NCBI GenBank assembly: GCA_016283295.1
Contig: JAEEMQ010000024.1
Span: 325 to 64,324 of the forward strand
From: Alphaproteobacteria bacterium
Lineage (GTDB): Bacteria; Pseudomonadota; Alphaproteobacteria; RF32; CAG-239
Direction of reading: 5' to 3'
DNA: 64,000 nt
Shown here: positions 1,620-17,963 of the stretch, in pieces
Layout: every line of letters starts with the position of its first letter
How positions within the stretch are numbered: the first letter of the stretch is position 1
Position numbers and translations under genes: made by a program
The notes under the pieces: generated by a model
The model's input: the letters and a program-made list of their open reading frames with translations, nothing else
Told to the model about the DNA's origin: nothing
Database searches by the model: none

Positions 1620-1827
1620 ATCAAATTCCTTTCTTATAAATCGAAACTAATATAAAGGTAAACCAACGATATTTAAAAAGGGTAAAGATAATGTCAGATT
1701 GTGGCAATGGTTTATACTAAGACTATTGCAATTGAAATTATTCAGTGTTAGATGTGGATATAATAACTTAATACTTGCAGTTGTTTGTGTAAAGGTTAGA
1801 GTTTAACTATAAGCAAGGAGAGTGTTA

Positions 1828-3093
1828 ATGGATAATGATTCTGTACTGGTAATGAATGTCGGAACGGGGGTTAAAGAAGAAAATAATCATTCTTCTTATA
1901 TAGAAGTAGTAAAGAAAGCAATTGACACAGCTGGCGCTTACAATATTGTTTTAATTTATTCGCAAAATGAGGTTAGTGAGCAAATTGTCGGTGAAATATG
2001 CGAAGATTATAATGAAACGTACCATATAGATAAACACAAACTTCCAAATAAAGAAATGGAATTTAATTTTGATGCGTGTTATAAAGAATATGATGAGTTG
2101 TTGAGAGATTATGCCGACAAACATATTATTCTTGATGTAACGCACGGAACGAAGGCAATGAGTGCGGCTCTTTATGCAGTGGGTTTGCACTATGATGTCA
2201 GAATTTTTCAATATAGCAAGAAGATAGAAAATAGTGACGGAGATTTTGTTGCCGGTGCGGAAACTATAGAAATTTTTGAGGCCTCATACGCAAGGTGGCG
2301 TGGGATATTCAAACAATGCCGGACATTGTTTGCCTCCAGACAATACGAAGCCGTAAAGGATATTGTTTCTAACGAAAAGTGCCCGAAAAATTTGGTTCGT
2401 GCAAAGGACGATTGTATCCAATTATCTGAATTTTGTGCCGCTTGGGATAGATTCGATTATAATATGGCCTTAGCGAAATTAGAAGAACTAGAAACTACAA
2501 TTCCGGAATTGAATTATGAGTATAGTCCTCAGGTCGAGAAATTGTTAAGTGTCTTGGCAGACGGCACCTCTCCATTAGAAAGAGCCAAATATCTTATGTT
2601 TGATTTGTATGCTAACGGATTAAGAAGATTGAAAAATGCTCAATACGAAGATGCCGGTGTCAGAGCTTATCGTATGGCAGAAATGTTGGGACAAATATAT
2701 TTAATGAAAGAAGGGTATCAATCTGACAGAATGCCTGCTTCAGATAAGAAAGTAAGTAGTTTTGCCGAAGCAAAAGGTATGCGATCAGAGGGAGGAACTT
2801 ATCGATTTAACAGAACTCAGGTAATAGATTTTTTGGACCAACAGTTAAACTATAATCCAAATGATATAAGATTTTTGAGAGATATAGAGAAAGATGTCCG
2901 TGATTTGCGAAACAAATCCATTCTGATTCACGGATATACAGCAAAAGTTGTTTCATCTGAAAGATTAGAACGTATTTTCAGTAGACGGCTATTTCCAAAG
3001 ATGAAAGAACTTATTCAAGAATCGGAATTTAACGAAATTCTGCAATCAGCTATGTTTTTGAACAATAATTTTAAGGCAGAAAATAATGAATGA
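1828..3093 (+). CDS. CARF-HEPN ancillary effector, Cas02710 (TIGR02710)-like, Csm6/Csx1 class
   Basis: N-terminal Rossmann-like CARF motifs (VMNVGTG, LDVTHGTKAMSAALY). C-terminal HEPN-type R-x6-H motif (LRNKSILIHGY). About 420 aa, as expected for the family. AGGAG lies 7 nt before the ATG at 1828; the track ORF starts at GTG 1822. The 3' end overlaps the cas10 start by 8 nt. Confidence 0.7.
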   Translation: MDNDSVLVMNVGTGVKEENNHSSYIEVVKKAIDTAGAYNIVLIYSQNEVSEQIVGEICEDYNETYHIDKHKLPNKEMEFNFDACYKEYDELLRDYADKHIILDVTHGTKAMSAALYAVGLHYDVRIFQYSKKIENSDGDFVAGAETIEIFEASYARWRGIFKQCRTLFASRQYEAVKDIVSNEKCPKNLVRAKDDCIQLSEFCAAWDRFDYNMALAKLEELETTIPELNYEYSPQVEKLLSVLADGTSPLERAKYLMFDLYANGLRRLKNAQYEDAGVRAYRMAEMLGQIYLMKEGYQSDRMPASDKKVSSFAEAKGMRSEGGTYRFNRTQVIDFLDQQLNYNPNDIRFLRDIEKDVRDLRNKSILIHGYTAKVVSSERLERIFSRRLFPKMKELIQESEFNEILQSAMFLNNNFKAENNE

Positions 3094-5602
3094 ATTGCTT
3101 ATACCATCGTGCCGTATGGCATTTTCGGCATTGATACACGATATCGGAAAGTTTGCCGAGCGTGCAAAAATAAATATCTCGCCGGCGGAAAAAGAGAATA
3201 ATGTGCATATCTATTGTCCGTTTAATGAACAAGGCGGATACCATACGCATATCCACGCGGCATATACGGGTATAGCCATCGACATTATTGAAAAGTATCT
3301 GCCTGCCATAAATAATACGGATACATTTCCGTTTCAGACGGATGACAAAGATAATTCCGTAATCAACGCGGCGGCGAAGCATCATCGACCGAATACATAT
3401 TTGCAAAATATAATCAGCACGGCAGACCGATTATCAAGCGCGTTTGAGCGCACAAAATATGATGAATATAACAATACATTGGATAATGAAAACTATCAAC
3501 AGGCGCGGCTTATTCCGCTGTTTGATAAATTGTTTGCCAAAGACAGACAAGTTGATTTCAAGTATCGATATCCTTTGGAAATTATGTCGCCGAAAGGTAT
3601 ATTTCCGGAGTTAAAACACAGCATTGATAAAGAAGAAGCAACTAAGGAATATAATCGGCTTTGGAACGGCTTTATACAAGATGTGCAAAAAATACGTAAC
3701 CGTGAAAATTGGAATTTGTGGTTAGATAATTTTGATACACTGTATGCTCTGTATGCACAAAATATTCCGTCAGCATCATATAAAACATTAGCCGATGTTT
3801 CGTTGTATGACCATTCAAAAAGCACGGCGGCACTGGCAACAGCGCTTTGGCGGTATCATCTTGAAACAAAAACGGAAACAATCGATGCATTGAAAAATGA
3901 TTCGGAACAAAAGTTTTTGCTTATTCAGGGCGATGTTTCGGGCATACAGGATTATATCTTTGAAACAGGAAAACATTCGCGCAAAAATGCGTATAAGTTT
4001 TTACGCGGACGTTCTTTTATGATTTCGCTGTTTTGTGAATGTGCCGCACTTAAAATACTGGATACGCTCGGGTTGCCTTCAACTTCGCAAATAATGAATG
4101 CGGCCGGAAAATTTGTTATTGTGGCACCGAATACCGATGAGGTGAAAAAACAACTCGGGCAAGTTAAAAATGAACTGAATAACTGGTTTAAATCAGAATA
4201 TTACGGCTTGGTTTCGGTCGGAATTGCATCAATTGAAGCTTCGCAGCAAGATTTTGAAAATAAAAACTTTTCATCTTTACAGGAGAATATTTATCATTCA
4301 TTAAGTATCGCTAAAATGCAAAAGTTTGATTTATGTCACGAATATTCGGAATTTGATGACTTTTTAACGCGATATAACAAAGATAAAGGCGTTTGTTGTT
4401 ATGACGGAAAAATGCCGGCAGAAGAATTGGTCCCGAATACCGAAAATGATTGGGCTTGCAAGCGTTGTAAGGATATTCTCTCATTAAGCGAACATTTAAC
4501 GCGGCAAAGCCGGATATTTATTTCGCAAACACCGCAAGACAACGGTTTCAAAACCGATATATTAGGATATTATGTCGGTTGGCAAAAATCAGACGATGAT
4601 CTTCGGATATGGGATATTTCTTTACCGACAAATGATGAAAAATCAATGTATTGCGGTTATGCTAAGCGCTATATTAATGCCTATATTCCGAGATTTACGG
4701 AAGATGATCTAGCTAAAAACGAAAGTATTTTTACGCCGAATAATAAATTAGAAAAGGCGGAGGCGGATAAGCCGAAAACATTTTCACATTTAGCTGTTGA
4801 AAATTGTATGTTTGAAGGGAATAAAATAAAAACAGTCTCGGCATTGATGTGTGTGAAAGGCGATATTGATAATTTAGGACATATTTTGCAAGCAGGTCTA
4901 AAGGAAACGACATTTGCAACAATGGCGGGGCTGAGCCGTCAAATCAATAACTTTTTTGCCGTATGGCTGCCTGATTTGTGTCAGACAAAAGCTAAAAATA
5001 TATATACGGTGTTTGCTGGCGGTGATGATTTTTATTTAATCGGACCGTGGTTGGATATGGTAGAGATTATACCGATTATCAGAAAAAAGTTTGCCGAATA
5101 TGTTTGTAATAATGTTCAGATTACTTTCTCGGTAGGTATGTGTATGACGCGTTCCGGTGATGATGCGGTTAATATGTCGGATATGGCTGAAAATGCACTC
5201 GAAAAAGCAAAGAAGCGTGAAGTAGGCAATGAAACAAAAAATGCGGTATGTTGTTTTAATCAAGTGGTTTCCTATACCGATTATGAAAACCTTTTGGAAC
5301 AAGAAAAAACGTTGGAACAGCTGCATCAAAAGTATGGGATATCCGGTAGTTACATATATGGTCTTTTGTCGTTGTGTGAAGATGCTGATGCCGTAAATAA
5401 AGATTTTATGCGCGCTATGTGGCGTTCGAAATTAGTGTACCGAACACAGCGAATGATTGAGACCAATCGCAACATTAAAGATGAAGATAAACAAACTGTA
5501 ACAAACACAATTGTTCAACATATTGCTTCGGCCATTGAACAATATAAAACAGACTACAAAATAGCATTATTTATATGGCTTTATAAACATAGGGAGAACT
5601 GA
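3086..5602 (+). CDS. cas10: Cas10 (Csm1), type III large subunit with HD nuclease and GGDD cyclase motifs
   Basis: 838 aa. HD motif SALIHDIGKF at the N-terminus, Cys-rich zinc finger (CCYDG...CKRC), and palm motif FAGGDDFYLIGPW. Confidence 0.92.
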   Translation: MNELLIPSCRMAFSALIHDIGKFAERAKINISPAEKENNVHIYCPFNEQGGYHTHIHAAYTGIAIDIIEKYLPAINNTDTFPFQTDDKDNSVINAAAKHHRPNTYLQNIISTADRLSSAFERTKYDEYNNTLDNENYQQARLIPLFDKLFAKDRQVDFKYRYPLEIMSPKGIFPELKHSIDKEEATKEYNRLWNGFIQDVQKIRNRENWNLWLDNFDTLYALYAQNIPSASYKTLADVSLYDHSKSTAALATALWRYHLETKTETIDALKNDSEQKFLLIQGDVSGIQDYIFETGKHSRKNAYKFLRGRSFMISLFCECAALKILDTLGLPSTSQIMNAAGKFVIVAPNTDEVKKQLGQVKNELNNWFKSEYYGLVSVGIASIEASQQDFENKNFSSLQENIYHSLSIAKMQKFDLCHEYSEFDDFLTRYNKDKGVCCYDGKMPAEELVPNTENDWACKRCKDILSLSEHLTRQSRIFISQTPQDNGFKTDILGYYVGWQKSDDDLRIWDISLPTNDEKSMYCGYAKRYINAYIPRFTEDDLAKNESIFTPNNKLEKAEADKPKTFSHLAVENCMFEGNKIKTVSALMCVKGDIDNLGHILQAGLKETTFATMAGLSRQINNFFAVWLPDLCQTKAKNIYTVFAGGDDFYLIGPWLDMVEIIPIIRKKFAEYVCNNVQITFSVGMCMTRSGDDAVNMSDMAENALEKAKKREVGNETKNAVCCFNQVVSYTDYENLLEQEKTLEQLHQKYGISGSYIYGLLSLCEDADAVNKDFMRAMWRSKLVYRTQRMIETNRNIKDEDKQTVTNTIVQHIASAIEQYKTDYKIALFIWLYKHREN

Positions 5603-5603
5603 A

Positions 5604-6056
5604 ATGGAATTATCAAATAATAAACGAAGTTTTACACCGCAAAGTCGTGATTTTCACAGTGGTGTGAAAGTTTTAGAAGACAGAACATTGCCGAATTTTG
5701 ATATAAGAAATCTTACAAAGGACTTGTTTGATAAAACGGCGGATGATTGCGCAAAAATAATTTCAGAATGCAAAGATCAGAATAAATCTACTCAAATTCG
5801 CCGATTTTATGATGAGTTGGTAATGTGGGAAGATCGAGCTTCTGTTTCTGAGATAGCATATAAAAATGCTGAACCTTTCATTTTTATGATAAAGTCAAAA
5901 GTTGCGTATGCCAAGGGACGTAAAACCGTCGATGCAACGTTCAAAAAATTTATGGATAAAGTAATTGATCAAATTTCCGACGCTAAAACATTGAAAAATG
6001 CCAAAATGTTTATGGAAGCGGTTATGGGCTTTTACAAGTCATATAGACAAGACTAA
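5604..6056 (+). CDS. csm2: Csm2 (Cas11) small subunit
   Basis: 150-aa helical protein directly after cas10 (1-nt gap). Contains the STQIRRFYDEL motif typical of Csm2. Confidence 0.8.
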   Translation: MELSNNKRSFTPQSRDFHSGVKVLEDRTLPNFDIRNLTKDLFDKTADDCAKIISECKDQNKSTQIRRFYDELVMWEDRASVSEIAYKNAEPFIFMIKSKVAYAKGRKTVDATFKKFMDKVIDQISDAKTLKNAKMFMEAVMGFYKSYRQD

Positions 6057-6071
6057 AAAAGGAGAAAATAG

Positions 6072-6716
6072 ATGAGTTTTACGATAAAAATGCTTACGGG
6101 AAAAATTAAGACTGTTACTGGTTTGCATATTGGTTCCGGCAATTCGGAAATGCACATCGGCGGCACGGATAATCCGGTAATTAAAAACGGCTCGGAGCCT
6201 TATATTCCAGGTTCTTCACTAAAAGGCAAGTTGCGTAGTTTGCTTTGTTTATATACTGGTGATGCCAATTCGGAAATCGTAGCGAAATTGTTCGGCGTTT
6301 CTGCCGATGATAAAACAAACAAGGCGGAACTGATTAAAACCACTCGTTTATCTTTTTGGGATTGTTTTATCACTGAAGAATGGCGTAAAAATATCATTGA
6401 TAAGCAAGCCGGATTTACCGAAGTAAAAATGGAAAACACAATTGACCGCGCCACCGGAACATCTAATAATCTCCGCAATACAGAGCGCGTAATACCGGAA
6501 ACCGAATTTGACTTCAAACTGACCTTGAAAGTTTTCGATGATGAAGATGTGCTTCCGGTTGTTTTAGGAACAATGAAGTTGTTGGAAATGGATAGCTTGG
6601 GCGGTTCCGGCTCGCGCGGTTACGGCAAAATTAAATTTATCGACCTGAAAATCGATGATACTGATATTCAAGGCGATTTTGATGCAGTTAAACCTTTTGA
6701 AAAACGTTTTATTTAG
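6072..6716 (+). CDS. csm3: Csm3 (Cas7) RAMP backbone subunit
   Basis: 214 aa. Motifs TGLHIGSG, IPGSSLKGKLRSLL and a C-terminal G-rich loop LGGSGSRGYGKI. AGGAGAA ribosome-binding site. Confidence 0.92.
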   Translation: MSFTIKMLTGKIKTVTGLHIGSGNSEMHIGGTDNPVIKNGSEPYIPGSSLKGKLRSLLCLYTGDANSEIVAKLFGVSADDKTNKAELIKTTRLSFWDCFITEEWRKNIIDKQAGFTEVKMENTIDRATGTSNNLRNTERVIPETEFDFKLTLKVFDDEDVLPVVLGTMKLLEMDSLGGSGSRGYGKIKFIDLKIDDTDIQGDFDAVKPFEKRFI

Positions 6717-6728
6717 CGAGAGTTTTAT

Positions 6729-7676
6729 ATGAATTTATATCAGATAAACATCCGTCCGTTCGGCAGTTTTTATTCGTCGATAAAAGGCGATATGCTGTTT
6801 GGAATGTTTTGTTGGGCGGTTGTTGAAAATTTAGGAGAAGAGCGGCTCAAGAAGTGCCTAGAAGGATATACGCAAAATCGTCCGTTTATTGTGTTTTCTG
6901 ATGCATTTCCTTGCGGATATCTGCCTAAGCCGACATTGCCATTTACATATTATCAAAAAGAGCAAAAAGACAGGAGCGAAGCCGTTCGCAACCGTAAAGA
7001 TTTTAAGCGTAAAAATTGGCTTGCGGCAGATAAAATAGGTATGCCGACAAATCAGATGTCGAAACTGTTTCAAGAGATTCCGTATATTGCAAAATCGCTT
7101 TATACCGCGGTGCATCTTGATCCTGTGTCTCAGCACACGAGCGGTGGACAATATTCGGCATATACTACTGAGCAATTGTCTTATACGAAGGATTTGACAT
7201 TGTATGTTCTGATTGACGAACAGCGAATTTCGCCCTCTGAAGTGCAAACACTTCTGCAATATATCGGGCAAAGCGGCTACGGTAAAAAAGCTTCGGCCGG
7301 AAACGGCAAGTTTGAACTGCTTGATGATTTGAAGGCGGTTGAGTTTTCGGATGTTTCATCGCCGTCATACTTAACTTTGGCACCGTGTGTTCCGCAACAA
7401 CAAACATTTGATGCTAACAAAAGTTTTTACCATATCTTTGTGCGCTTCGGCAAACACGGCAATATGGCGGCGCGTTCCGGATGTCCATTTAAAAAGCCGG
7501 TTATGACGGCGGATACGGGAGCCGTATTCACATTTTTGCCGGAGCACAAGGTGGATAAGCCGAAATTTATCGGCACCGGCATAAGCAATATTTCGCAAAC
7601 CGAGCCGGCAACTGTATTTCAAGGGTATGCACCGGTTATTCCGCTAAAAATAACGGAGGCAGAACATGGAAAATAA
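6729..7676 (+). CDS. csm4: Csm4 (Cas5-like) RAMP subunit
   Basis: 315 aa. Position between csm3 and csm5. N-terminus (IRPFGSF...GDMLFGMFCWA) and GYGKKASAGNGKF glycine loop. Confidence 0.8.
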   Translation: MNLYQINIRPFGSFYSSIKGDMLFGMFCWAVVENLGEERLKKCLEGYTQNRPFIVFSDAFPCGYLPKPTLPFTYYQKEQKDRSEAVRNRKDFKRKNWLAADKIGMPTNQMSKLFQEIPYIAKSLYTAVHLDPVSQHTSGGQYSAYTTEQLSYTKDLTLYVLIDEQRISPSEVQTLLQYIGQSGYGKKASAGNGKFELLDDLKAVEFSDVSSPSYLTLAPCVPQQQTFDANKSFYHIFVRFGKHGNMAARSGCPFKKPVMTADTGAVFTFLPEHKVDKPKFIGTGISNISQTEPATVFQGYAPVIPLKITEAEHGK

Positions 7677-8964
7677 AGTATTGCAAGCGTATAATCTGAA
7701 AATAACGACATTTTCGCCGATTCACATCGGGGATAATGTTGATTTTGAGCCGACGGAATATATTATTGCAAATTCTGACGCGGTAGTGCAAATTGCGCCA
7801 AAATCGGCAGAAACGGAAGATTTTATTATATGTCCGGAATGCGGATATAAAAACAATATTGCCAAATTAGATAAGAAGATACCTCAATGTTTGGATTGTG
7901 AAAGCGATTTAGAGTTGCCGGAGCATATAGCAAAGAAAGAATCTGAAAAACTTCCCGCCAACAGCACACCGTCATATCTTTACACATTTACCCCGAAGCA
8001 GATGGCAGAAGCACTATCGGACATTGATAAGAAAAAGTTGCTGACCGTGGCGCGCGAGGGCGATTATACTTCGTTGCAGAAGTTCTTTAAGGATAACACG
8101 TCTAAAATCATCAAAACTGCAGTAAAACATTCAAAAGTGTGTCCGGCGGTTGCAAAGCAATATGCGGATAAATGCGGCAATATGGATGTTCCGCAAAAAG
8201 AAAGAAATCAGTTTAAAATTGAAAAAAACATTTGCAATTTGGCAACCGATTTGGCGTATATTCCCGGTTCGTCGCTTAAAGGGGCAATTCGCACGGCATT
8301 GATGTCGGAGCGCAATCAATCAGCAGGGGTGACTTATAGAGATATTGAAAAGAAGAAACAAACACCGAAAGGCGAGAAAATAACTTATACCGCCGCGCCT
8401 GCCGAAAGAAAAATATATGAATACGGAGATCCGGCACAGGACCCGTTTAAATACCTGAAAATCGGCGATTCCACACCGCAGAATGCGTATTTGACCGAAA
8501 TCTGCGTGGCAAAGAATTATAAACGTCGCACCGGAGAAACGCAAATGCCGGTTTCCATCGAGGTTATTCCGCACGACATTGCGTTTACTACGGAATTGTC
8601 ATTAGCCGAAAACTCGTTTGCCAAAGCGCCGACACACAAAAAGCTGCCGGATACAATGTCGGATATCAGAACGGCGTGCAATAATTTTTACGGCGATATT
8701 TTGGCGCATGAGCAGTCGTATATCAACCAACCGGCATTATATACAAAGCTGAAACAGGCCTCGCAAAAACCGAATGCTTTTATTATCCGCATCGGCAAGC
8801 ACAGCGGCGCCGAGAGTGTGACCATCGACGGTCTGCGACGGATTCAAAACAGAAAATGCCCGAATTATTTTATGGACCATTCCACAACCTATTGGTTGGC
8901 GGAAAACGGACGCGAAAATTTGCCTTTCGGTTGGTGCGTTGTGGAGTATGATGAGGTAAAATAA
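7666..8964 (+). CDS. csm5: Csm5 RAMP subunit with an N-terminal CxxC...CxxC insertion
   Basis: 432 aa. Motifs SPIHIGD and YIPGSSLKGAIRTAL. CPEC (residues 56-59) and CLDC (residues 75-78) are encoded at 7831-7899. GGAGG ribosome-binding site. Overlaps csm4 by 11 nt. Confidence 0.8.
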   Translation: MENKVLQAYNLKITTFSPIHIGDNVDFEPTEYIIANSDAVVQIAPKSAETEDFIICPECGYKNNIAKLDKKIPQCLDCESDLELPEHIAKKESEKLPANSTPSYLYTFTPKQMAEALSDIDKKKLLTVAREGDYTSLQKFFKDNTSKIIKTAVKHSKVCPAVAKQYADKCGNMDVPQKERNQFKIEKNICNLATDLAYIPGSSLKGAIRTALMSERNQSAGVTYRDIEKKKQTPKGEKITYTAAPAERKIYEYGDPAQDPFKYLKIGDSTPQNAYLTEICVAKNYKRRTGETQMPVSIEVIPHDIAFTTELSLAENSFAKAPTHKKLPDTMSDIRTACNNFYGDILAHEQSYINQPALYTKLKQASQKPNAFIIRIGKHSGAESVTIDGLRRIQNRKCPNYFMDHSTTYWLAENGRENLPFGWCVVEYDEVK

Positions 8965-9896
8965 TGTTTCCGCTCATTAAAATACGCTTAATCTTCAAAG
9001 CATTGCAAGACATAAACTTTCCGTATTATGCCGGCTCGGCGTTGCGCGGTGTGTTCGGCAAATCGCTGCGCCGTGTTTCCTGTTTAACCCCAAAGACCAA
9101 ATGCACCGAATGCGCCATGGCAATAAATTGTCCGTATGCTTCAGTGTTTGAAAACGGATATGTCGCACAGGGCAAGCCGAATAAAAATGTGCCGAATCCG
9201 TATATAATCGAGCCGATGCCGTTGGGAGCAAAAGAAGTCAAACAAGGCGAATGTTTTGCATTTGAGCAAATTATTTTCGGCACGGCAGTCAGCAAATTGT
9301 CGTATATTCTGTTGGCATGGGTAAAAACCGGCAATTTGGGCTTTACAAAAGAGCGAACACCGGCGCAGTTGTTGCGTATTGAGCAAATAGAGCCGAATGG
9401 TAACATTTTGTTGTTGCACGACTTGGAAAATCCGACGCAGGAAACGGATTTGGCACAACCGACGTATGAACTTTTGCCGGAAAAAGTGGTGGAGCGACTT
9501 CAAATAGTGTTAGAAACACCGCTGAGGATACATCATCTCGGTCATCCGATAGTGCCGGAAGCGTTGACGGCGCAGGATTTTTTGGTATCAATGATGCGTA
9601 AACAGGCAAATATGGCGCAATATCATATTGCTGATTATGCACCGAATAAAAAAATGCTGCACGACATTATTCCGAGTATAAAGATAGAAAAAGCTGATTT
9701 GCACTGGCTGGATTGGAAACGTTATTCTTCGCGACAAAAGCAAGAAATTGCATTAGGCGGTATTATCGGCACGTTTGAATTGAGCGGAGATTTAGAAAAA
9801 CTATATCCGTATATAAAGGCGGGAGAATATTTTCATTGCGGCAAAAGCACAGTTATGGGTTTGGGTAAATACCGCGTTATAGAACATCGTAAATAA
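8964..9896 (+). CDS. cas6: Cas6 pre-crRNA endoribonuclease (Cys-cluster variant)
   Basis: 310 aa. N-terminus AGSALRGVFGKSLRR followed by C-x6-C-x2-C-x4-C. C-terminal glycine-rich loop HCGKSTVMGLGKY. Last gene before the leader and array, with ATG overlapping the csm5 stop. Confidence 0.75.
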   Translation: MFPLIKIRLIFKALQDINFPYYAGSALRGVFGKSLRRVSCLTPKTKCTECAMAINCPYASVFENGYVAQGKPNKNVPNPYIIEPMPLGAKEVKQGECFAFEQIIFGTAVSKLSYILLAWVKTGNLGFTKERTPAQLLRIEQIEPNGNILLLHDLENPTQETDLAQPTYELLPEKVVERLQIVLETPLRIHHLGHPIVPEALTAQDFLVSMMRKQANMAQYHIADYAPNKKMLHDIIPSIKIEKADLHWLDWKRYSSRQKQEIALGGIIGTFELSGDLEKLYPYIKAGEYFHCGKSTVMGLGKYRVIEHRK

Positions 9897-9999
9897 GAAA
9901 AAAACACTAAAAAAATGATGTTTTTGGTTATAAAAAAGTCATTTTTTTGCTATGTAAAAGCCGTATTATGTCGTAAAAACAAAAAATTGTGATATAGAG
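9897..9999 (+). promoter_or_regulatory. CRISPR leader (AT-rich)
   Basis: 103-nt AT-rich segment between the cas6 stop and the first, best-conserved repeat. Repeat degeneracy increases away from it. Confidence 0.55.
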
Positions 10000-10828
10000 A
10001 TAATAGAAGCCCCTGATTTGAGGGGATTGTGATACCAAGCTCAACATTGCTCTTAATAAGTCACGATAATAGAAGCCCCTGATTTGAGGGGATTGTGATA
10101 CTTTATATCCGTTATTAACAAGATAAAGAATTATAATAGAAGCCCCTGATTTGAGGGGATTGTGATACTAACGGAATCCAATTCCTTTTCCACAAGTGAT
10201 AATAGAAGCCCCTGATTTGAGGGGATTGTGATACTCAGCATAACTCCTCAATCTCTTGTTTTGTATAATAGAAGCCCCTGATTTGTGGGGATTGTGATAC
10301 AAACGTTTGTGTCGGTAGCTGTGAACGTCTATAATAGGAGCCCCTGATTTGAGGGGATTGTGATACTTCTTGAATATACTTTTTATCTTCTGTACTATAA
10401 TAGAAGCCCCTGATTTGTGGGGATTGTGATACTTGTAATACATTTCAACTTTCTTTCATGGTATAATAGAAGCCCCTGATTTGAGGGGATTGTGATACTA
10501 TCGTTATGTATTGCGTATGTGTTAGGCAATAATAGAAGCCCCTGATTTGAGGGGATTGTGATACAGATACATCGTATGAAAGCCAACACTCAAAATAATA
10601 GAAGCCCCTGATTTGAGGGGATTGAGATACGGATAGTAAAACATAAGGCCTGTCGTTCATATGATAGAAGCCCCTGATTTGAGGGGATTGTGATACTTTT
10701 ATCTGATTCATAGTCAGACCACTCGGAATAATAGAAGCCCCTGATTTGTGGGGATTGTGATACATTCTTAAGACATTTTTCAATAATCTTATTATAATAG
10801 AAGCCCCTGATTTGAGGGAATTGAGAAC
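10000..10828 (+). CRISPR. CRISPR array, leader-proximal block: 13 repeats, 12 spacers
   Basis: 36-nt repeat ATAATAGAAGCCCCTGATTTGAGGGGATTGTGATAC. Repeat starts: 10000, 10066, 10133, 10199, 10265, 10331, 10397, 10463, 10529, 10595, 10661, 10728, 10794. Spacers are 30-31 nt. Point variants occur in repeats 5, 6, 7, 10, 11 and 12. Repeat 13 is 35 nt and degenerate (..GAGGGAATTGAGAAC). Confidence 0.95.
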
Positions 10829-11010
10829 GCCCTAATGTCATCCCTCGAAGTGCGCCGCGCGTCACTTCGTCAAGGGATCTGACCTTTGCGAAGCGCAATA
10901 TTCTATGTGAATCGGAAGCAATGCTGTCGCATTGGAAGATGAGATCCTTGGACGCACGAATGCACAGTATCGTGCGAAGGATGACATCATCATTAAGGGG
11001 ATTGAGATAA
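10829..11010 (+). ncRNA. structured segment occupying the loop position of a repeat-like hairpin (possible MITE-like insertion or Cas6-processed structured RNA)
   Basis: GCCCT (10829-10833) and CATTAAGGGG (10991-11000) mimic the two arms of the repeat stem and are followed by the repeat handle ATTGAGATAA (11001-11010). Outer helix: 10830-10847 pairs with 10975-10999, with a CATCAT bulge. Inner hairpins lie at 10840-10878, 10919-10934 and 10953-10976. The strand is assumed from the array orientation. Confidence 0.45.
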
Positions 11011-11340
11011 GAACTCATCGGCAACTGTCTGTGCCTTACTATAATAGTAGCCCCACTTTTACGGGGATTGAGATACTGCGTTAGGAATTTCAAGAACAGG
11101 GCAAGTATAATAATAGCCCCGTAATTGCGGGGATTGAGATACCCAATATTTAATGACGTTTGTATAATCACCATAATAATAGCCCCGTAATTGCGGGGAT
11201 TGAGATACAAAGCAAGCGTTATAAATGAACGGTATTGTATAATATAAGCCCCCGACACAGCGGGGATTGAGACACATAGTAATATGTTGCTTGTCTTATA
11301 TACATATAATATAAGCCCTGCAGTTGCGGGGATTGAGATG
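10997..11340 (+). CRISPR. CRISPR array, distal block: one 3' half-repeat plus 5 divergent repeats, 5 spacers
   Basis: Half-repeat GGGGATTGAGATAA (10997-11010) is followed by a 30-nt spacer. Full repeats start at 11041, 11107, 11173, 11239 and 11306 (35-37 nt), all with 30-nt spacers. The conserved parts are the ATAATA 5' end and the GGGGATTGAGAYAC 3' end. Stem sequences differ but stay complementary. Confidence 0.85.
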
Positions 11341-11511
11341 TACAAAGGAAAAGAAATATATAAGATTATACAAGATAAGCAGAAGAAAGTATCCTCTAAA
11401 ACTATTTCCCTTTTTTGTCCTGGCATCAGAACAGAAATAGATGATAAGTTTATTAAAGAAGTAGAAAAAGTTCTAAAAGAATACGAAAAAAACAAAGCCG
11501 CCCAAGATTGA
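11338..11511 (+). CDS. possible 57-aa ORF starting in the last repeat (MYKGKEIYKIIQDKQKK...)
   Basis: Its ATG is formed by the last 3 nt of the terminal degenerate repeat (..GATTGAGATG). The hairpin GCCGCCCA/TGGGCGGT (11497-11527) overlaps the stop. No ribosome-binding site and no recognisable domain. Confidence 0.2.
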   Translation: MYKGKEIYKIIQDKQKKVSSKTISLFCPGIRTEIDDKFIKEVEKVLKEYEKNKAAQD

Positions 11512-11584
11512 TTTACTAATGGGCGGTTACCTAATTGACAGACACTGACTGGGGTCAAGCCCCTTCCTCAATTAACTTTATTCC

Positions 11585-11641
11585 GGAGAGCCACGCTGTA
11601 AAGTAGATAAAACTACCTTATGCTACAGACCGTGGCTCTCC
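11585..11641 (+). repeat. hairpin element H1 (GGAGAGCCACG ... CGTGGCTCTCC)
   Basis: Perfect 11-bp outer stem. Inner helices CTGTA/TACAG and AAGTAG/CTACCTT close an ATAAAA loop. A second copy lies at 11780-11831. Confidence 0.6.
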
Positions 11642-11726
11642 ATAATAACTGAAAGCGATAGAGGACTTACACACTATATCTATCTTTAAGGTTGACAGAC
11701 CGAATTCTACAACCACTTTCAGCCTA

Positions 11727-11768
11727 CCTAATCCCGACCGCATCTACGACACTTTGTCTGGGATTAGG
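11727..11768 (+). promoter_or_regulatory. 12-13-bp-arm palindrome overlapping a promoter (possible operator)
   Basis: CCTAATCCCGAC (11727-11738) pairs with GTCTGGGATTAGG (11756-11768), with one bulged base. It abuts TATAAT at 11769-11774. Confidence 0.4.
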
Positions 11769-11774
11769 TATAAT
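11746..11774 (+). promoter_or_regulatory. sigma70-like promoter firing into H2
   Basis: -35 ACGACA (11746-11751), 17-bp spacer, consensus -10 TATAAT (11769-11774). The predicted start falls at about the first G of H2 (11780). Confidence 0.45.
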
Positions 11775-11779
11775 CTGTT

Positions 11780-11831
11780 GGAGAGCCACGCCGCTTGGAG
11801 AAAACTCCCTATAACGCAGTCCGTGGCTCTC
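11780..11831 (+). repeat. hairpin element H2 (GGAGAGCCACG ... CGTGGCTCTC)
   Basis: Same outer stem as H1 (10-11 bp). The inner sequence differs, with helix GGAG/CTCC closing an AAAA loop. Confidence 0.6.
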
Positions 11832-11934
11832 AGCAGTAATTATATTATAACGCAACAAAATCAACATTCAAGAGCCAAAAACAGCAAAAGTTAACAGTAA
11901 TGCCACAATCTGACAATTCTGCAGTTTTGATAGC

Positions 11935-11963
11935 TTGCAAACAAAATTTACCGGTGCTAATAT
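11935..11963 (+). promoter_or_regulatory. sigma70-like promoter of the small-ORF operon
   Basis: TTGCAA (11935-11940), 17-bp spacer, TAATAT (11958-11963). Followed by an AGGGAGG ribosome-binding site and ATG at 11984. Confidence 0.5.
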
Positions 11964-11983
11964 TTCAATAAAGGGAGGCCAAA

Positions 11984-12130
11984 ATGGGAATTTTAGTTTT
12001 ATTGCTTATCGGTTATGTTATTTGGAAGTGTGTCAGTAGTGCCCCGGTAAGCACCGGAAGGGAAGACAGAGAATTTGAAGATATGTGCCTGTCTTTGCAA
12101 GATGTAGATGATGATTTCGATGTGTTTTAG
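11984..12130 (+). CDS. 48-aa small membrane peptide (MGILVLLLIGYVIWKCVSSAPVSTGREDREFEDMCLSLQDVDDDFDVF)
   Basis: Absent from the ORF track because it is under 60 aa. Strong ribosome-binding site AAGGGAGG 6 nt upstream. Hydrophobic N-terminal helix followed by an acidic tail. TAG at 12128-12130. Confidence 0.55.
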   Translation: MGILVLLLIGYVIWKCVSSAPVSTGREDREFEDMCLSLQDVDDDFDVF

Positions 12131-12141
12131 GAGCGTGATAA

Positions 12142-12363
12142 ATGACTTGTAAAATAATTGATGCAAAAATGCTGTTTGATGCTATTCGGAACAAAGAAGA
12201 TGAGTTCTGGAAAGCAGCAACCATTATAACAATGGATAATATTTCGACTTTTAACAAAAACAAGGTAGCAAAAACACTGATAAAATCGAAATCTGCCCAA
12301 AAATGGTACAAACTCAAATTAGTGGAATACGAATATACGCAGGACGATGATGATTTGGCATAA
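12142..12363 (+). CDS. 73-aa hypothetical protein with an acidic C-terminus
   Basis: AGGAG ribosome-binding site 8 nt upstream. Starts 11 nt after the preceding small ORF. No recognisable domain. Confidence 0.5.
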   Translation: MTCKIIDAKMLFDAIRNKEDEFWKAATIITMDNISTFNKNKVAKTLIKSKSAQKWYKLKLVEYEYTQDDDDLA

Positions 12364-12603
12364 TTTGCGAACAATCTACTTTATACAGCTTCTGATGGCA
12401 CCGCAGGCATCGTAAATTCTGACAGCGGTGCATACAAATCCCCAGACATCAATCTGTTTTTCAAAAAATTTTTTCCCGACTCATCCTGTTGAATTTAAAA
12501 GAAAAATTGCATAACTCATTGATTCTGGCTCATTTTTATTAAAAATAAAGCTTGACAAGATTCACATGATCTGTCCTGATATAGGTATGAACAGGACAAT
12601 TTT

Positions 12604-12948
12604 ATGGAGAATCTTATGGAAAACAGCCAGTTTCAGAGCATTGCCGAACAAAATGATGACTTTCGCTTGCACCCTTCAAAAGGTACGTTTTGCCTCACTT
12701 CCGGTATTCGTGCTTTGGGCAAGGATTGCGTTAGAGAAATCATCAACATAGTTCGCAATTTCAACAGCTTCAACGAAGATAATGATCCTTACGGTGAGCA
12801 TGACTTCGGTGCCTTTTATTACCGTAATCGTCAGATTTTCTTCAAAATTGATAACTACGACCGCGAGTTTCTTTACCTTTCGCCCGATGTTACCAATCCG
12901 AAGCTGACCAATAAAGTTTTAACAATTATGCTTGCACAGGAGTATTAA
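12604..12948 (+). CDS. DUF3768 family protein (plasmid/ICE-associated)
   Basis: Motifs EDNDPYGEHDFGAF, FFKIDNYD and the C-terminal VLTIMLAQEY are characteristic of DUF3768. TTGACA lies upstream at about 12553. Confidence 0.75.
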   Translation: MENLMENSQFQSIAEQNDDFRLHPSKGTFCLTSGIRALGKDCVREIINIVRNFNSFNEDNDPYGEHDFGAFYYRNRQIFFKIDNYDREFLYLSPDVTNPKLTNKVLTIMLAQEY

Positions 12949-12950
12949 AA

Positions 12951-13130
12951 ATGGAATACGATGTTATATCAACACCTGATTTAGAGGAACTTTGCCTTTG
13001 GGTAAACGAAAAACTGCGTCAAGGTTGGCGTTTGCAGGGCGGTATTGCTACGGTGGTTCTGCCGAAAAGATATACGGTTTTTTACCAAGCGATTGCCCGA
13101 GAAAGAAAAAAGAGAGTTTCACAAAATTAA
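12951..13130 (+). CDS. DUF1737-like small protein (59 aa)
   Basis: Not in the track. ATG lies 2 nt after the DUF3768 stop. Sequence MEYDVISTPDLEELCLWVNEKLRQGWRLQGGIA... carries the GW-x-x-GG signature. Confidence 0.5.
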   Translation: MEYDVISTPDLEELCLWVNEKLRQGWRLQGGIATVVLPKRYTVFYQAIARERKKRVSQN

Positions 13131-13162
13131 TTATTATGTTTCTTTCGTAAAAATCCAAATGT

Positions 13163-13190
13163 GCCGCAGGTCTCAACGCCTGCGGCTTTA
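13163..13190 (+). terminator. hairpin terminator after the DUF3768-DUF1737 pair
   Basis: GCCGCAGG (13163-13170) pairs with CCTGCGGC (13179-13186), followed by TTTAT. Confidence 0.5.
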
Positions 13191-13202
13191 TAGGAGAAAA
13201 CC

Positions 13203-13787
13203 ATGACTAACAGTGAATTTGTAGATGACAAGAAAATTAAGGACATTATGCTCTATATTAAGTCAATGAAACACGCCGAGCAAATCCGGATGATGTTTAT
13301 GTGCAGCTTGAACGGGCTTCGCTCCATAAATTTTGCATATTTGCAGGTCAAGGACTGCTATACAGACCAGCTGAAACCCAAAGATGTGATCAATCTTGAT
13401 TACGATAAAAACAAGGGCAAGCATAAATGCTCATACTTTATGAATAGCCAGATGAAGAAGGAATTTGCGGACTATTTGAACTATTTGCAACAAAAATGGG
13501 GTGAAGACCTTTCGCCGGAAACATACTTGTTTACGTCGCAGAAACGGAACCGACCGTATAATCGCGTAAGCATCAGTCGGATGTTTGGCTTCATTTATAA
13601 CAAATTCGGCATAAAGGGAGCCAGTCATTTGGGAAGGCATCTATTTGTTTCAAAACTGGTTAATGCTGGTGTAAATATCTGTTTGGTACAAAAATTAGCT
13701 AATCATCGCAATATAGCAACAACCCAAAAGTATTTTATTTATTCCGAGAAAATGCTGGCTAATGCCGTAGAAAACGTGAGGGTGTGA
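13203..13787 (+). CDS. small (194-aa) tyrosine site-specific recombinase, catalytic domain only (FimB/FimE-sized)
   Basis: Catalytic signature in order: GLRSINF (Arg), ASHLGRHLF (H-x-x-R), LANHRNIATTQKYF (His ... Tyr). No N-terminal SAM-like DNA-binding domain. AGGAGAA ribosome-binding site. Confidence 0.8.
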   Translation: MTNSEFVDDKKIKDIMLYIKSMKHAEQIRMMFMCSLNGLRSINFAYLQVKDCYTDQLKPKDVINLDYDKNKGKHKCSYFMNSQMKKEFADYLNYLQQKWGEDLSPETYLFTSQKRNRPYNRVSISRMFGFIYNKFGIKGASHLGRHLFVSKLVNAGVNICLVQKLANHRNIATTQKYFIYSEKMLANAVENVRV

Positions 13788-13927
13788 CGGGATTGACTGT
13801 ATGAACTATAAATAGCATGTCGTAATAGTGATCTAATTTATAATTTTGCTTGAATTTTGCCCAATTTGGAATTTATAATCATTTTACAAATAACATAAAG
13901 ATTATATTACCAATCTGATTAATCCAA

Positions 13928-16612
13928 ATGAAAGGTCTTAAAATGGCTGATATTTTTGAGCAAATAAAGCAAGAGTATTATTCTATGGATTCTCAGTTAA
14001 AAGATGAGATTTCTTCCGGATATACGCATTTCAAAACAACCTATAATCCTGAAATTCTAAAATCATTAAGCGGCGAAGAACTGCTTGATAAGATGTTTTT
14101 AGGGAAAGGTGATAATGAAAATCTATGCTATTATTTGGAAAAGGATAAAAGAAGTAAGATATATGGCGGAATCGGTGGCGGAAATGCTTCCAAATTTGGT
14201 TTATATTACTCAAAAGATAAAAATTCATGGGTTAAAGGTAAAGGAAATTCCACTCGAATACTGTCTGTGGAAGAAGCCATTGAGGAAGGTATCAAAATCA
14301 GGGATGAGATTGTTGATGCCTGTAAATTGGTATCAAATCTAAAATTTGATACTATTGAGGATTATCGAAAGCTAGATGAGTATAAAAATGGCAGTCAAAA
14401 TATAAAAAATTTATGGGTTAGAAAATATTTGCATATGATGTTTCCAGAACATTTTCCTCTATGGTATAATGCAGATATGCTTGATGCTATTATTCAATAC
14501 TTTGGTGAAATCTCTGAAGATGGTGTATTTGCAAAAGAGGGACAAATTGCAATGATTGCTAAGAGATGCAATATTCCATTAAACCTTTTTTCTAGTTTAG
14601 ATAGTATCGTAGATATAGCACAATCTGTGAAACACTCTGATTGGACGAAAGACAATACAAATAATGAGGGCATCCATTATTGGGTTTGTGCTCCTGGTAG
14701 AAATGCCGAAAAATGGGAGGAATGTTATCAAAAAGGTATTTTGGTTTTAGGTTGGGATGAACTCGGTGATTACAGAGAATATGCAGATAGAAAAGAAATA
14801 GAAGAAGCAATAAAACATTACGATAGTAGTAAAAAAGGTCCCAATAACGATACATTAGCTGTTTGGGGATTTTGCCATGTTATGAAAGAAGGAGATATAG
14901 TGTATGCCAAGAAAGGTAGAACAAAAATTATTGGTCGGGGCATAGTGAAATCCGAATATATATATGATGCTGATAGGCAAGATTATAAAAACATAAGAAA
15001 AGTAGATTGGACGGCTGGAGATTGGGAATTAGCGGAAGAGTGGAGTAAAGCGCCATTAGCCCCCAAAACCCTAACAGATATAACAAAGTACCCAGATTGG
15101 TATCGGAGACTTGAAGATATAACGTTAGGAGTAAGTATGATAAAATCAAAAAAGGATTTACAAATGAGACAAATGCGAAATATTCCATTAAATCAAATTT
15201 TATATGGTCCTCCGGGAACTGGTAAAACATACAACACGGTAATAGAGTGTATTCATATATTAAATAATGATTTATACAATGAATATTTGAACAGTAGTGA
15301 TAAATCAAGATTTTATAAAGATAATCTTTTACCTGAGTACAATCGCCTCAGAGAGCAAGGAGTGATAGAATTTATTACATTTCACCAATCATATTCATAT
15401 GAAGAGTTTGTTGAAGGTATAAAACCAGAGGTTTCTGGTGATACAAAAGAGGTTGAATACAATGTGAAACCAGGTATTTTTAGAACAATTTGTGAAAAAG
15501 CGTCAACACCAACAGTTTTGCAAAATAAGTGGAATATTGATTCAGATGTATCAATATGGAAAGTTTCATTAGGGGGAACCTATGATAACCCAATCAGAAA
15601 AGATTGTTTTGAGAATAATCGGATTAGAATAGGATGGGACGATTATGGGGAGAATTATGAGGACAAGGCAACGGAAGGAAAACGAACTTTAGATGCTTTT
15701 TATCAAAAAATGAAAAAGGGTGATATTGTTTTATCCTGTTATACTAATCGGATAATAGATGGAATTGGAATAGTGGAAGGAAATCCTGTCTTTGATACAT
15801 CATTAAGCGAGTATAAAAGAACAAGGAAGGTCAATTGGATATTAAAAAACATTAGAGAAGATATTTTCAGTATAAATGATGATACAACAATGACTTTACC
15901 TGCTGTATATAAATTAAAGATTCCTTTGAATAAAATAATTGAGATTCTGCATAAGTATAATACTCATGCTCCAGTAACCAAGGAAAATAGTCAGAAGTTT
16001 GTTTTGGTAATTGATGAGATAAATCGTGGTAATATATCTAAAATTTTTGGAGAACTTATTACCTTAATCGAAGAAGATAAGCGTTCAAACCTATCTGTAA
16101 GACTTCCTTATTCACAAGAAACTCTTACTGTACCTAAGAATTTGTATATCATTGGCACAATGAATACATCTGACCGTTCAATTGCGACAATTGATATTGC
16201 TTTGAGGCGGAGATTTACATTTATTCCTAAAATGCCTGACGAAAATTTAGTTCCGGATAAATTTAATATGAAAGAAGCTTTTAAGAATCTAAACAAAAAA
16301 ATACGGATTCTTCTTGATGAAGACCATCAGATAGGTCACAGCTATTTTATGAATATTGAGACTATTTCAGACTTAAAGGAAACTTGGGCGAATAAAATCA
16401 TTCCATTGCTAAATGAATACTTTTACGGTGATTGGACTAAGCTGAGATTGTTAATTCCTGGATTTATTTCTGAAAACCCAATAGAAGATAAAGAATTAGA
16501 AGATGAAATTGGTGAAAATTGTTATTATAGGTTTAAAAATCCTTTTTCATTAAGCGATGATGATTTTATAAAAGCGACAATGGGACGGAAAATTGAAACA
16601 GATAAAGATTAG
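13928..16612 (+). CDS. mcrB: McrB-family AAA+ GTPase with a long N-terminal region and a domain inserted in the AAA+ core
   Basis: Walker A LYGPPGTGKTY. FHQSYSYEEFVEG. Walker B and McrB signature VLVIDEINRGNISKIFGELITLIEEDKR. IIGTMNTSDRSIATIDIALRRRF. Two homologous ~110-aa modules are present, one N-terminal and one between Walker A and Walker B. An alternative start lies at 13943. Confidence 0.85.
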   Translation: MKGLKMADIFEQIKQEYYSMDSQLKDEISSGYTHFKTTYNPEILKSLSGEELLDKMFLGKGDNENLCYYLEKDKRSKIYGGIGGGNASKFGLYYSKDKNSWVKGKGNSTRILSVEEAIEEGIKIRDEIVDACKLVSNLKFDTIEDYRKLDEYKNGSQNIKNLWVRKYLHMMFPEHFPLWYNADMLDAIIQYFGEISEDGVFAKEGQIAMIAKRCNIPLNLFSSLDSIVDIAQSVKHSDWTKDNTNNEGIHYWVCAPGRNAEKWEECYQKGILVLGWDELGDYREYADRKEIEEAIKHYDSSKKGPNNDTLAVWGFCHVMKEGDIVYAKKGRTKIIGRGIVKSEYIYDADRQDYKNIRKVDWTAGDWELAEEWSKAPLAPKTLTDITKYPDWYRRLEDITLGVSMIKSKKDLQMRQMRNIPLNQILYGPPGTGKTYNTVIECIHILNNDLYNEYLNSSDKSRFYKDNLLPEYNRLREQGVIEFITFHQSYSYEEFVEGIKPEVSGDTKEVEYNVKPGIFRTICEKASTPTVLQNKWNIDSDVSIWKVSLGGTYDNPIRKDCFENNRIRIGWDDYGENYEDKATEGKRTLDAFYQKMKKGDIVLSCYTNRIIDGIGIVEGNPVFDTSLSEYKRTRKVNWILKNIREDIFSINDDTTMTLPAVYKLKIPLNKIIEILHKYNTHAPVTKENSQKFVLVIDEINRGNISKIFGELITLIEEDKRSNLSVRLPYSQETLTVPKNLYIIGTMNTSDRSIATIDIALRRRFTFIPKMPDENLVPDKFNMKEAFKNLNKKIRILLDEDHQIGHSYFMNIETISDLKETWANKIIPLLNEYFYGDWTKLRLLIPGFISENPIEDKELEDEIGENCYYRFKNPFSLSDDDFIKATMGRKIETDKD

Positions 16613-17827: not shown

Positions 17828-17880
17828 TAAATGTTAAACAATGTGGCGAATCTGCACAAAGTTTAACATTTTTTTATTTT
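17828..17880 (+). terminator. rho-independent terminator of mcrBC
   Basis: AAATGTTAAAC (17828-17838) pairs with GTTTAACATTT (17860-17870), followed by a T-run. Confidence 0.7.
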
Positions 17881-17929
17881 CTGTATTTTGCTCATTTTCA
17901 AAAGTGCTTATTTTACGCGGTTTTCCGAG

Positions 17930-17963
17930 AAAATGTTAAAGAATGCACATTCTTTAACATTTT
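17930..17963. promoter_or_regulatory. perfect 16-bp-arm palindrome
   Basis: AAAATGTTAAAGAATG ca CATTCTTTAACATTTT. It shares the TGTTAAA/TTTAACA motif with the mcrC terminator stem. Confidence 0.5.

Follow-up and report, generated by a model that had tools for sequence, protein, structure and literature searches.

Alternating palindromic hairpins in the tail of a type III-A CRISPR-Cas cassette of an alphaproteobacterium

The window analysed here is a stretch of 64,000 nucleotides from an Alphaproteobacteria bacterium (RF32; CAG-239 in the GTDB lineage; GenBank assembly GCA_016283295.1, contig JAEEMQ010000024.1, positions 325 to 64,324) and contains a type III-A clustered regularly interspaced short palindromic repeats (CRISPR)-Cas locus, with csm6, cas10, csm2-5 and cas6 at 1822-9896. 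This is followed by a CRISPR array at 10000-11342 on the + strand and then by the subject of this analysis, a compact module of hairpins constructed around four copies of an 11-mer, GGAGAGCCACG. Downstream of the module the genes run in the order 48-aa peptide, 73-aa open reading frame (ORF), DUF3768, DUF1737, 194-aa tyrosine recombinase and McrBC. A first-pass annotation had offered two explanations for the module, either a pair of paralogous structured RNAs or an invertible promoter switch of the fimS type. It is argued below that the module is best assigned, as an orphan, to the broad class of extragenic palindromic repeat clusters, and that any function it possesses is probably an ordinary one.

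The 11-mer GGAGAGCCACG is found on the + strand at 11585 and 11780, and its reverse complement is found exactly at 11631 and as a 10/11 match at 11822, where base 11832 is A rather than C. A scan of the 64-kb window that tolerated up to one mismatch recovered these four sites and no further match, compared with a chance expectation of 0.26, and none of 100 shuffled sequences contained four or more matches. The sites pair to generate two hairpins, H1 (11585-11641, 57 nt) and H2 (11780-11831, 52 nt), exactly where the first-pass annotation had drawn them, with the 11822 copy being the only imperfect one. The inner pairings that had been read within the hairpins are also present, namely CTGTA/TACAG, AAGTAG/CTA-C-CTT with a bulged C, and GGAG/CTCC, as are the A-rich loops. 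Taken by itself, the inner pairing is not clearly above chance when the inner sequences are shuffled (H1, p = 0.07; H2, p = 0.28). Both stems are lengthened outwards beyond the 11-mers (Table 1). The folding energy of H1 is -28.2 kcal/mol on the + strand and -33.4 on the - strand, and that of H2 is -26.7 kcal/mol on the + strand. The 3' flanks read CCATAATAAC after H1 and AGCAGTAATTAT after H2.

Table 1. Features of the hairpin module and its surroundings, with positions given in the numbering of the window.
Feature	Position	Strand	Description
Orphan 57-codon ORF	11338-11511	+	Directly after the last degenerate CRISPR repeat; part of the 523-nt segment
hp0	11496-11528	+	9-bp stem AGCCGCCCA / TGGGCGGTT with a 15-nt loop; overlaps the stop codon of the 57-codon ORF
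X1, upstream hairpin of unit 1	11528-11578	+	Begins TACCTAAT; stem TAATTGA/TCAATTA around a small GGGG(T)/(G)CCCC hairpin
H1 extended	11578-11648	+	Outer 11-bp stem GGAGAGCCACG/CGTGGCTCTCC (11585-11595 / 11631-11641); 5-bp TTATT/AATAA extension
H1 interior	within 11578-11648	+	Middle stem CTGTA/TACAG, apical stem, loop ATAAAA
Inter-unit spacer	11649-11724	+	Weaker structure; carries the second TTGACAGAC (11692-11700)
X2, upstream hairpin of unit 2	11725-11770	+	Perfect 11-bp arms TACCTAATCCC/GGGATTAGGTA; begins with TACCTAAT
Sigma-70-like match ACGACA-17-TATAAT	11746-11774	+	Inside/overlapping X2; 10/12 consensus positions
H2 extended	11775-11836	+	10-bp outer stem 11781-11790 / 11822-11831; CTGTT/AGCAG extension
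H2 interior	within 11775-11836	+	Apical stem GGAG/CTCC, loop AAAA; G11780 faces A11832 unpaired
Right junction of insertion	11866-11870	.	ATTCA, repeated at the left junction 1740-1744; homology to the L085-L091 operon begins
TTGCAA-17-TAATAT	11935-11963	+	Kept in L085-L091; outside the proposed invertible segment
Small-ORF operon	11984-12363	+	48-aa membrane peptide (11984-12130) and 73-aa protein (12142-12363)
Tyrosine recombinase, 194 aa	13203-13787	+	PF00589; triad with DUF3768 (12604-12948) and DUF1737 (12951-13130)

The two hairpins form part of a larger tandem duplication, whose units recur after about 195 nt. The copies of GGAGAGCCACG are 195 nt apart, the TACCTAAT motifs (11528 and 11725) are 197 nt apart and the two stretches of about 200 nt align with z = 4.7. 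Unit 1 consists of X1 followed by H1 and unit 2 of X2 followed by H2. The motif TTGACAGAC, which had been reported at 11535 and 11692, does occur at both positions, the first copy (11535-11543) falling inside X1. A central palindrome had been placed at 11727-11768; it is present as X2, but its extent is slightly wider, with three pairs in addition to the perfect arms, and its folding energy is -17.6 kcal/mol on the + strand and -22.2 on the - strand. Ahead of unit 1 is a further hairpin, hp0, with a minimum free energy of -14.8 kcal/mol and no U-tract on its 3' side. The whole module is enclosed by an 18-nt terminal inverted repeat, TTATTCCGGAGAGCCACG / CGTGGCTCTCAGCAGTAA, with 83% complementarity. 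The region 11520-11860 folds far better than its shuffles on both strands (z = -6.3 and -6.7), and it contains, within 250 nt, three of the 17 hairpins in the 64-kb window whose perfect stems measure 10 bp or more.

On the evidence of sequence and layout, H1 and H2 are clearly paralogues. They have in common 12 nt on the 5' side and 15 nt, with one mismatch, on the 3' side, together with a layout of outer stem, bulge, middle stem, asymmetric internal loop, apical stem and A-rich loop. Their outer stems are perfectly Watson-Crick paired, contain no wobble and are the same in the copies, whilst the rest of the units has diverged. A compensatory change from U-A to C-G in the middle stem was identified with RNAalifold, and alignment in a manual register adds further both-sided changes, one from U-A to G-C in the apical stem plus two in the stem extensions. 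A triple change between X1 and X2 (TGA/TCA to CCC/GGG) was considered and set aside, as it depends on the register and the primary alignment pairs the X2 3' arm with GGGGTCAAG of X1; it is weak evidence for kept pairing. G.U pairs occur on the + strand alone, within H2 and the small GGGG hairpin, which fits an RNA read from that strand. The proposal of paralogous structured RNAs is partly supported, by the paralogy, the layout and some compensatory pairs, but no match to Rfam accompanies it: the sole gathering-level match in the window is a tRNA-Arg at 24236-24309, and at E values up to 10 the region 11300-12100 returned only noise (E >= 0.64).

The CRISPR array that precedes the module is read on the + strand; its repeats end in ATTGnGATAC, its leader adjoins cas6 and its degenerate repeats lie at the far end. 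The array part 10830-11342 is interrupted, the repeat at 10794 being followed by 211 nt of G+C-richer sequence that ends in a half repeat (10993-11012). After the half repeat come five variant repeats, in which the hairpin loops differ and the stems still pair. The sixth spacer (10367-10396) was considered as a complement of 11439-11463 and of the H1 interior, but the best ungapped match of 20/30 is at chance level in the window. Beyond the array, the 523-nt segment 11343-11865 that contains the module is an orphan with no homologue in anything searched. Sensitive blastn and nhmmer searches with 11343-11866 against the window and the relatives' loci L069-L098 gave self matches only. The 57-codon ORF at the start of this segment may not be a gene. 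It has no match in Pfam, PADLOC or PHROGs, and amongst 1.84 billion representative proteins it retrieved its own 75-aa cluster and one marginal match (E = 3.7e-4, no aligned stretch).

Comparison with the closest relatives places this orphan segment at the end of an insertion. In loci L085-L091, which are about 90% identical, homology starts exactly at 11866 and the hairpin region is absent. On the other side, the left flank 1666-1744 can be aligned with the sequence that, in L085-L089, immediately precedes the small-ORF operon (p = 0.002-0.006). The left alignment stops at ...AATTATTCA and the right flank picks up at ATTCAAGAGCC. Relative to the intergenic region of L085-L091, the window appears to carry a 10.1-kb insertion (1745-11865), comprising CRISPR-Cas and the orphan segment, and the hairpin module is located 30-340 nt inside the right end of the inserted cassette. 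No significant terminal inverted repeats are found at the two ends of the insert (p = 0.17). The conserved 5' region of the small-ORF operon does not include the module. Homologues of the 48-aa ORF are 65-94% identical, are followed by an ORF of about 74-85 aa in every fetched locus and have no hairpins in their upstream regions. The conserved TTGCAA-17-TAATAT sequence (Table 1) is presumed to be the promoter-like element of this operon.

The left edge of the island has features of its own. A WYL/WCX regulator (47-1012) and a T5orf172 protein (1014-1619) are encoded there on the - strand. The latter matches the PADLOC candidate defence family PDC-S57, and its gene adjoins the recombinase triad in relatives. 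The CRISPR-Cas insertion is bracketed by a 15-bp inverted repeat, TGTCAGATTGTGGCA (1692-1706) / TGCCACAATCTGACA (11901-11915), both copies of which are found about 75 nt apart in one intergenic region of the relative L085. This repeat is an operator-like motif and a candidate site for the WYL regulator.

A sharp breakpoint between strains is observed at 12133/12134, directly after the stop codon of the 48-aa ORF (L078, L079 and L092). Past the breakpoint, the second small gene of otherwise identical strains is another one, coding for 84-85 aa rather than the 73 aa of the window, and in L078 the defence cassette that follows (HEPN-SNF2 plus SACS) also differs. Since L078 and L079 equal the window up to 12133 and then differ, the hairpins are linked to the array and the 48-aa ORF and not to the recombinase module.

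Other copies of the module were sought by scanning genome, metagenome and viral contig collections with the exact-stem pattern GGAGAGCCACG-N20-50-CGTGGCTCTC. The sole true match was the same strain (L052, which is the same as L079), 100% identical over window positions 11003-12133. One group of the other exact-stem matches consisted of REP-like hairpins of a CACGGAG type in high-GC metagenome-assembled genomes (MAGs) from soil, which were judged unrelated. This widespread family, with a CACGGAG-AGC-CACGGAG stem that contains GGAGAGCCACG, is a multi-copy one in MAGs of high-GC soil Alphaproteobacteria, Acetobacteraceae and Fimbriiglobus (loci L001, L003-L005, L013-L016, L018, L021, L022, L025, L046, L049 and L065). 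A 48-nt terminator after a heavy-metal ATPase gene, found in Blautia and many gut contigs, has CAGACCGTGGCTCTC in common with the module by coincidence and was also rejected. A relaxed stem pattern and an X2 pattern gave unrelated high-GC matches or none in viral contigs, and distant-mode blastn against plasmids and phages gave nothing. The JAEEGJ metagenome assembly, which holds the strain in question, yielded this locus only.

The recombinase downstream had been described as a 194-aa tyrosine recombinase with the size and motif order of the FimB/FimE invertases. The protein is indeed a PF00589 member that consists of the catalytic domain only. Against the FimB-type invertase model PRK09870 (NCBIfam) the protein scores 25.3 bits, compared with a cutoff of 221, and it scores higher against XerA and XerC models; its only sequence relatives in the PDB are XerA and a XerC-like protein. 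There are 269 homologues at E <= 0.001, the 120 listed being 71-99% identical and almost all 194 aa long. The family comprises more than 100 protein clusters attributed to Alphaproteobacteria MAGs (source names "MAG: Alphaproteobacteria bacterium"), with identities of 75-92%. In nine fetched relatives' loci (L069-L077) the recombinase, about 88-92% identical to that of the window, sits beside DUF3768, and beside DUF1737 where this was called. In the loci examined, the conserved triad is surrounded by variable defence genes (GmrSD, SNF2 helicases, restriction-modification, McrBC or CRISPR) in defence islands of MAGs of gut Alphaproteobacteria. In the nine loci the 11-mer, with two mismatches allowed, is absent within 10 kb and no comparable hairpins occur near the triad. 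Searches of the literature on DUF3768, and on invertons associated with CRISPR, yielded nothing relevant.

A second set of four 11-mers, AAAATGTTAAA, in the order + - + -, forms two hairpins at 17829-17963 of the window, directly after mcrC, one of them with a perfect 15-bp stem and a GCAC loop. A set that is 75% identical and equal in layout is present in L073-L077 (11813-11950), upstream of a T5orf172 gene.

The proposed invertible segment was compared between assemblies. Inverted repeats do surround it, although they form a perfect 12-bp pair (11631-11642 / 11779-11790) enclosing 136 bp rather than the 11 bp and 138 bp first described. The window is 100% identical to, and collinear with, four independent metagenome contigs, the orientation being the same in all (5/5 assemblies). 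Of these, the window, L079 and L128 cover H1-H2 in full, L129 lacks the 3' arm of H2 only and L078 covers the right part only. No inverted or deleted form was seen in the five assemblies, which are consensus sequences from which a minority orientation could escape. The outward promoter ACGACA-17-TATAAT is there as a sequence, but matches of this quality are at chance level, with 14 promoter-like matches in the 4.3 kb of 9700-14000 against 14.4 +/- 3.8 from shuffles. Control of the small-ORF operon by a promoter flip is not supported either, as a conserved region of its own, starting at 11866, precedes the operon in relatives without the hairpins.

The module, of which the repeat architecture, paralogy, strong folding, position, absence from relatives and fixed orientation are established, can be explained as a cluster of alternating palindromic units resembling the bacterial interspersed mosaic elements (BIMEs) and repetitive extragenic palindromes (REPs), which, if functional, would act in RNA as a barrier or protector. 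This explanation is held tentatively, with a confidence somewhat short of even. The X1-H1-X2-H2 cluster would have arisen when the tail of the CRISPR-Cas cassette underwent a local duplication in tandem. As the array is not followed by a canonical terminator, the precursor CRISPR RNA (pre-crRNA), which is read from the + strand, should run on into the hairpins, where these may act as a read-through barrier, a processing site or a protector of the pre-crRNA 3' end. Moreover, an array inserted ahead of the downstream operon would benefit from insulation, because the operon is equipped with an operator-like motif and a conserved upstream region of its own; the hairpin block could provide this insulation. 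If the module has a function, it most likely acts at the RNA level.

Several observations weigh against a BIME/REP-like cluster that works through RNA. The two strands of the module fold about equally well. A U-tract follows none of the hairpins and neither H1 nor H2 was listed by the terminator scan; despite their strong stems, the module hairpins are, judged from their sequence, not canonical intrinsic terminators. The identity of the outer stems of H1 and H2 amid otherwise diverged units points to sequence-specific recognition, gene conversion or palindrome correction and not to a purely structural constraint. No further copy of the module was found in the 64-kb window, in L069-L098 or in the scanned collections, unlike a dispersed REP family. 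Finally, most contigs with a Cas6 homologue end inside the array, and the sole related array that is fully spanned, the type III-A locus L099 (Cas6 66% identical), has no hairpins after it. About 135 nt of plain AT-rich sequence follows the terminal repeat of L099, and hence the module is not a general feature of this CRISPR type.

The module could alternatively be neutral or selfish palindromic DNA, functionless now, that originated as a non-autonomous remnant of the miniature inverted-repeat transposable element (MITE), REP or PATE-like kind or by local duplication. Hairpin-templated (quasi-palindrome) correction or gene conversion would then have preserved the perfect arms. The restriction of the orphan segment to this strain, the perfect and equal outer stems beside diverged interiors, the terminal inverted repeat spanning the module and the lack of significance of the inner pairing all favour this possibility. 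Yet no target-site duplication is seen around 11578-11839, there is no second copy in the 64 kb or in the JAEEGJ assembly, no transposase was noted amongst the window proteins scanned, and several pairs have been kept by compensatory changes. A MITE in the strict sense was rejected, since the terminal inverted repeat is present but a flanking direct duplication and a further copy are not seen. Neutral or selfish DNA is considered unlikely, though less so than the other alternatives.

The units could also encode one or two stand-alone small RNAs (sRNAs), transcribed from their own promoters (such as ACGACA-17-TATAAT, with a start at H2) and acting in trans or on the small-ORF mRNA, for instance through pairing of CUCCCU in H2 with the AGGGAG Shine-Dalgarno sequence at 11973-11978. 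Tandem paralogous units are what is found in the tandem sRNA pairs of Alphaproteobacteria, of which AbcR1/AbcR2 is one, and the strong folding, some covariation and a promoter-like match that ends 6 nt before H2 would be in keeping with such a role. This is nonetheless improbable, given the failure to match Rfam even at E values up to 10, the missing terminator U-tract, the chance frequency of the promoter match and the complete absence of the module from relatives whose small-ORF operon is about 90% identical. The 6-nt anti-Shine-Dalgarno match itself is estimated to occur by chance in about 8% of such regions.

A different type of explanation regards the hairpins as DNA recombination sites, similar to attP arms or to attC, next to an ATTCA crossover core through which the 10.1-kb cassette would have been integrated into a defence-island hotspot. 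The insertion does have ATTCA at both junctions, the left-flank similarity is significant, the hairpin cluster is close to the right junction and the island encodes a tyrosine recombinase. Furthermore, attC sites have a conserved stem and a variable interior, and the module likewise keeps its stem sequence and varies in the interior. Against this, the hairpins have no GTTRRRY-type box, the recombinase is without an arm-binding or IntI-specific domain and the nine relatives' loci with closely similar recombinases have no such hairpins within 10 kb. The strain breakpoint at 12133/12134 is not at a hairpin, the junction is a single example, the 5-bp ATTCA match could be microhomology and the insert has no terminal inverted repeats. 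Integration at the hairpins is accordingly rated as decidedly improbable. A bolder version holds that the cluster is the protein-recognised end of a mobile type III-A cassette, or else a new structured RNA of the CRISPR trailer; this is a long shot. In the former case the four 11-mers and the TACCTAAT motifs would be binding sites beside the ATTCA crossover core, by way of which entire defence cassettes would be exchanged at a hotspot of gut Alphaproteobacteria flanked by WYL operators, and the DUF3768-DUF1737-194-aa recombinase triad could provide the machinery.

The fimS-type inverton, with the 194-aa recombinase inverting the segment 11642-11779, bounded by the H1 right arm and the H2 left arm, and so redirecting the promoter, is very improbable indeed, for whilst a perfect 12-bp inverted repeat surrounds a 136-bp segment with a sigma-70-like match and a small tyrosine recombinase lies 1.4 kb away, the orientation is equal in all five assemblies, the promoter match is at chance level, the recombinase belongs to a conserved triad of many genomes without GGAGAGCCACG repeats and falls far below the FimB-type cutoff, several ORFs, four conserved genes among them, intervene between recombinase and site, direct site copies 195 nt apart would make deletion as possible as inversion, and the downstream operon has its own conserved promoter-like region.

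Had the inverton been real, it would have been an unusual find, a phase switch next to a type III CRISPR array, but the evidence is against it; the lesson is that a short inverted repeat with a small recombinase nearby does not make an inverton. What is left is an orphan pair of duplicated hairpin units, well defined, at the border of a CRISPR-Cas cassette inserted horizontally, and its practical value is modest. The pair indicates where the 10.1-kb defence cassette insertion ends on the right, and it could serve to insulate the array from an operon that is regulated separately. The surrounding island, with its recombinase triad, variable defence cassettes and operator-like inverted repeats, may be a more rewarding subject.

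Amongst known systems, the fimS element of E. coli with FimB/FimE resembles the module in its short perfect inverted repeats, its segment of about 140 bp with a promoter-like match and its nearby recombinase of about 200 aa. It differs in that the inverted repeats of the module are the arms of two palindromic hairpins, present in four copies that are both direct and inverted, as well as in the single orientation across five assemblies and the conservation of the recombinase in genomes that have no repeats. The attC sites of integrons are similar in having hairpins (52-71 nt in the module) with a conserved outer stem and a variable interior, on the 3' side of an inserted cassette and with a recombinase nearby. 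However, the bases of the module hairpins are GGAGAGC...GCTCTCC, with no R''/R' boxes (RYYYAAC / GTTRRRY), the only tyrosine recombinase in the vicinity is the 194-aa catalytic domain and not an IntI-type integrase with an extra domain, and the hairpins are found at one cassette boundary whilst the strain breakpoints are elsewhere. AbcR1/AbcR2-type sRNAs and the RNase III-type processing hairpins between cistrons of phage T7 are, like the module, tandem structured paralogues between transcription units, in which an internal loop separates the lower from the upper stem, but the module is without an Rfam match, a U-tract terminator or conservation in relatives.

The closest likeness is to the BIME/REP elements of enterobacteria and pseudomonads, notwithstanding some differences. 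The units of the module are 46-71 nt long compared with about 35-40, they are found at one locus only in the 64 kb and all scanned collections, the interiors of the two hairpins that contain GGAGAGCCACG differ and no RAYT gene was identified amongst the window proteins scanned. In both cases, a transcription unit is followed by tandem units in which two types of imperfect extragenic palindrome alternate, with stem sequences that are identical between copies. The known roles of BIME/REP elements are the protection of mRNA 3' ends and partial termination.

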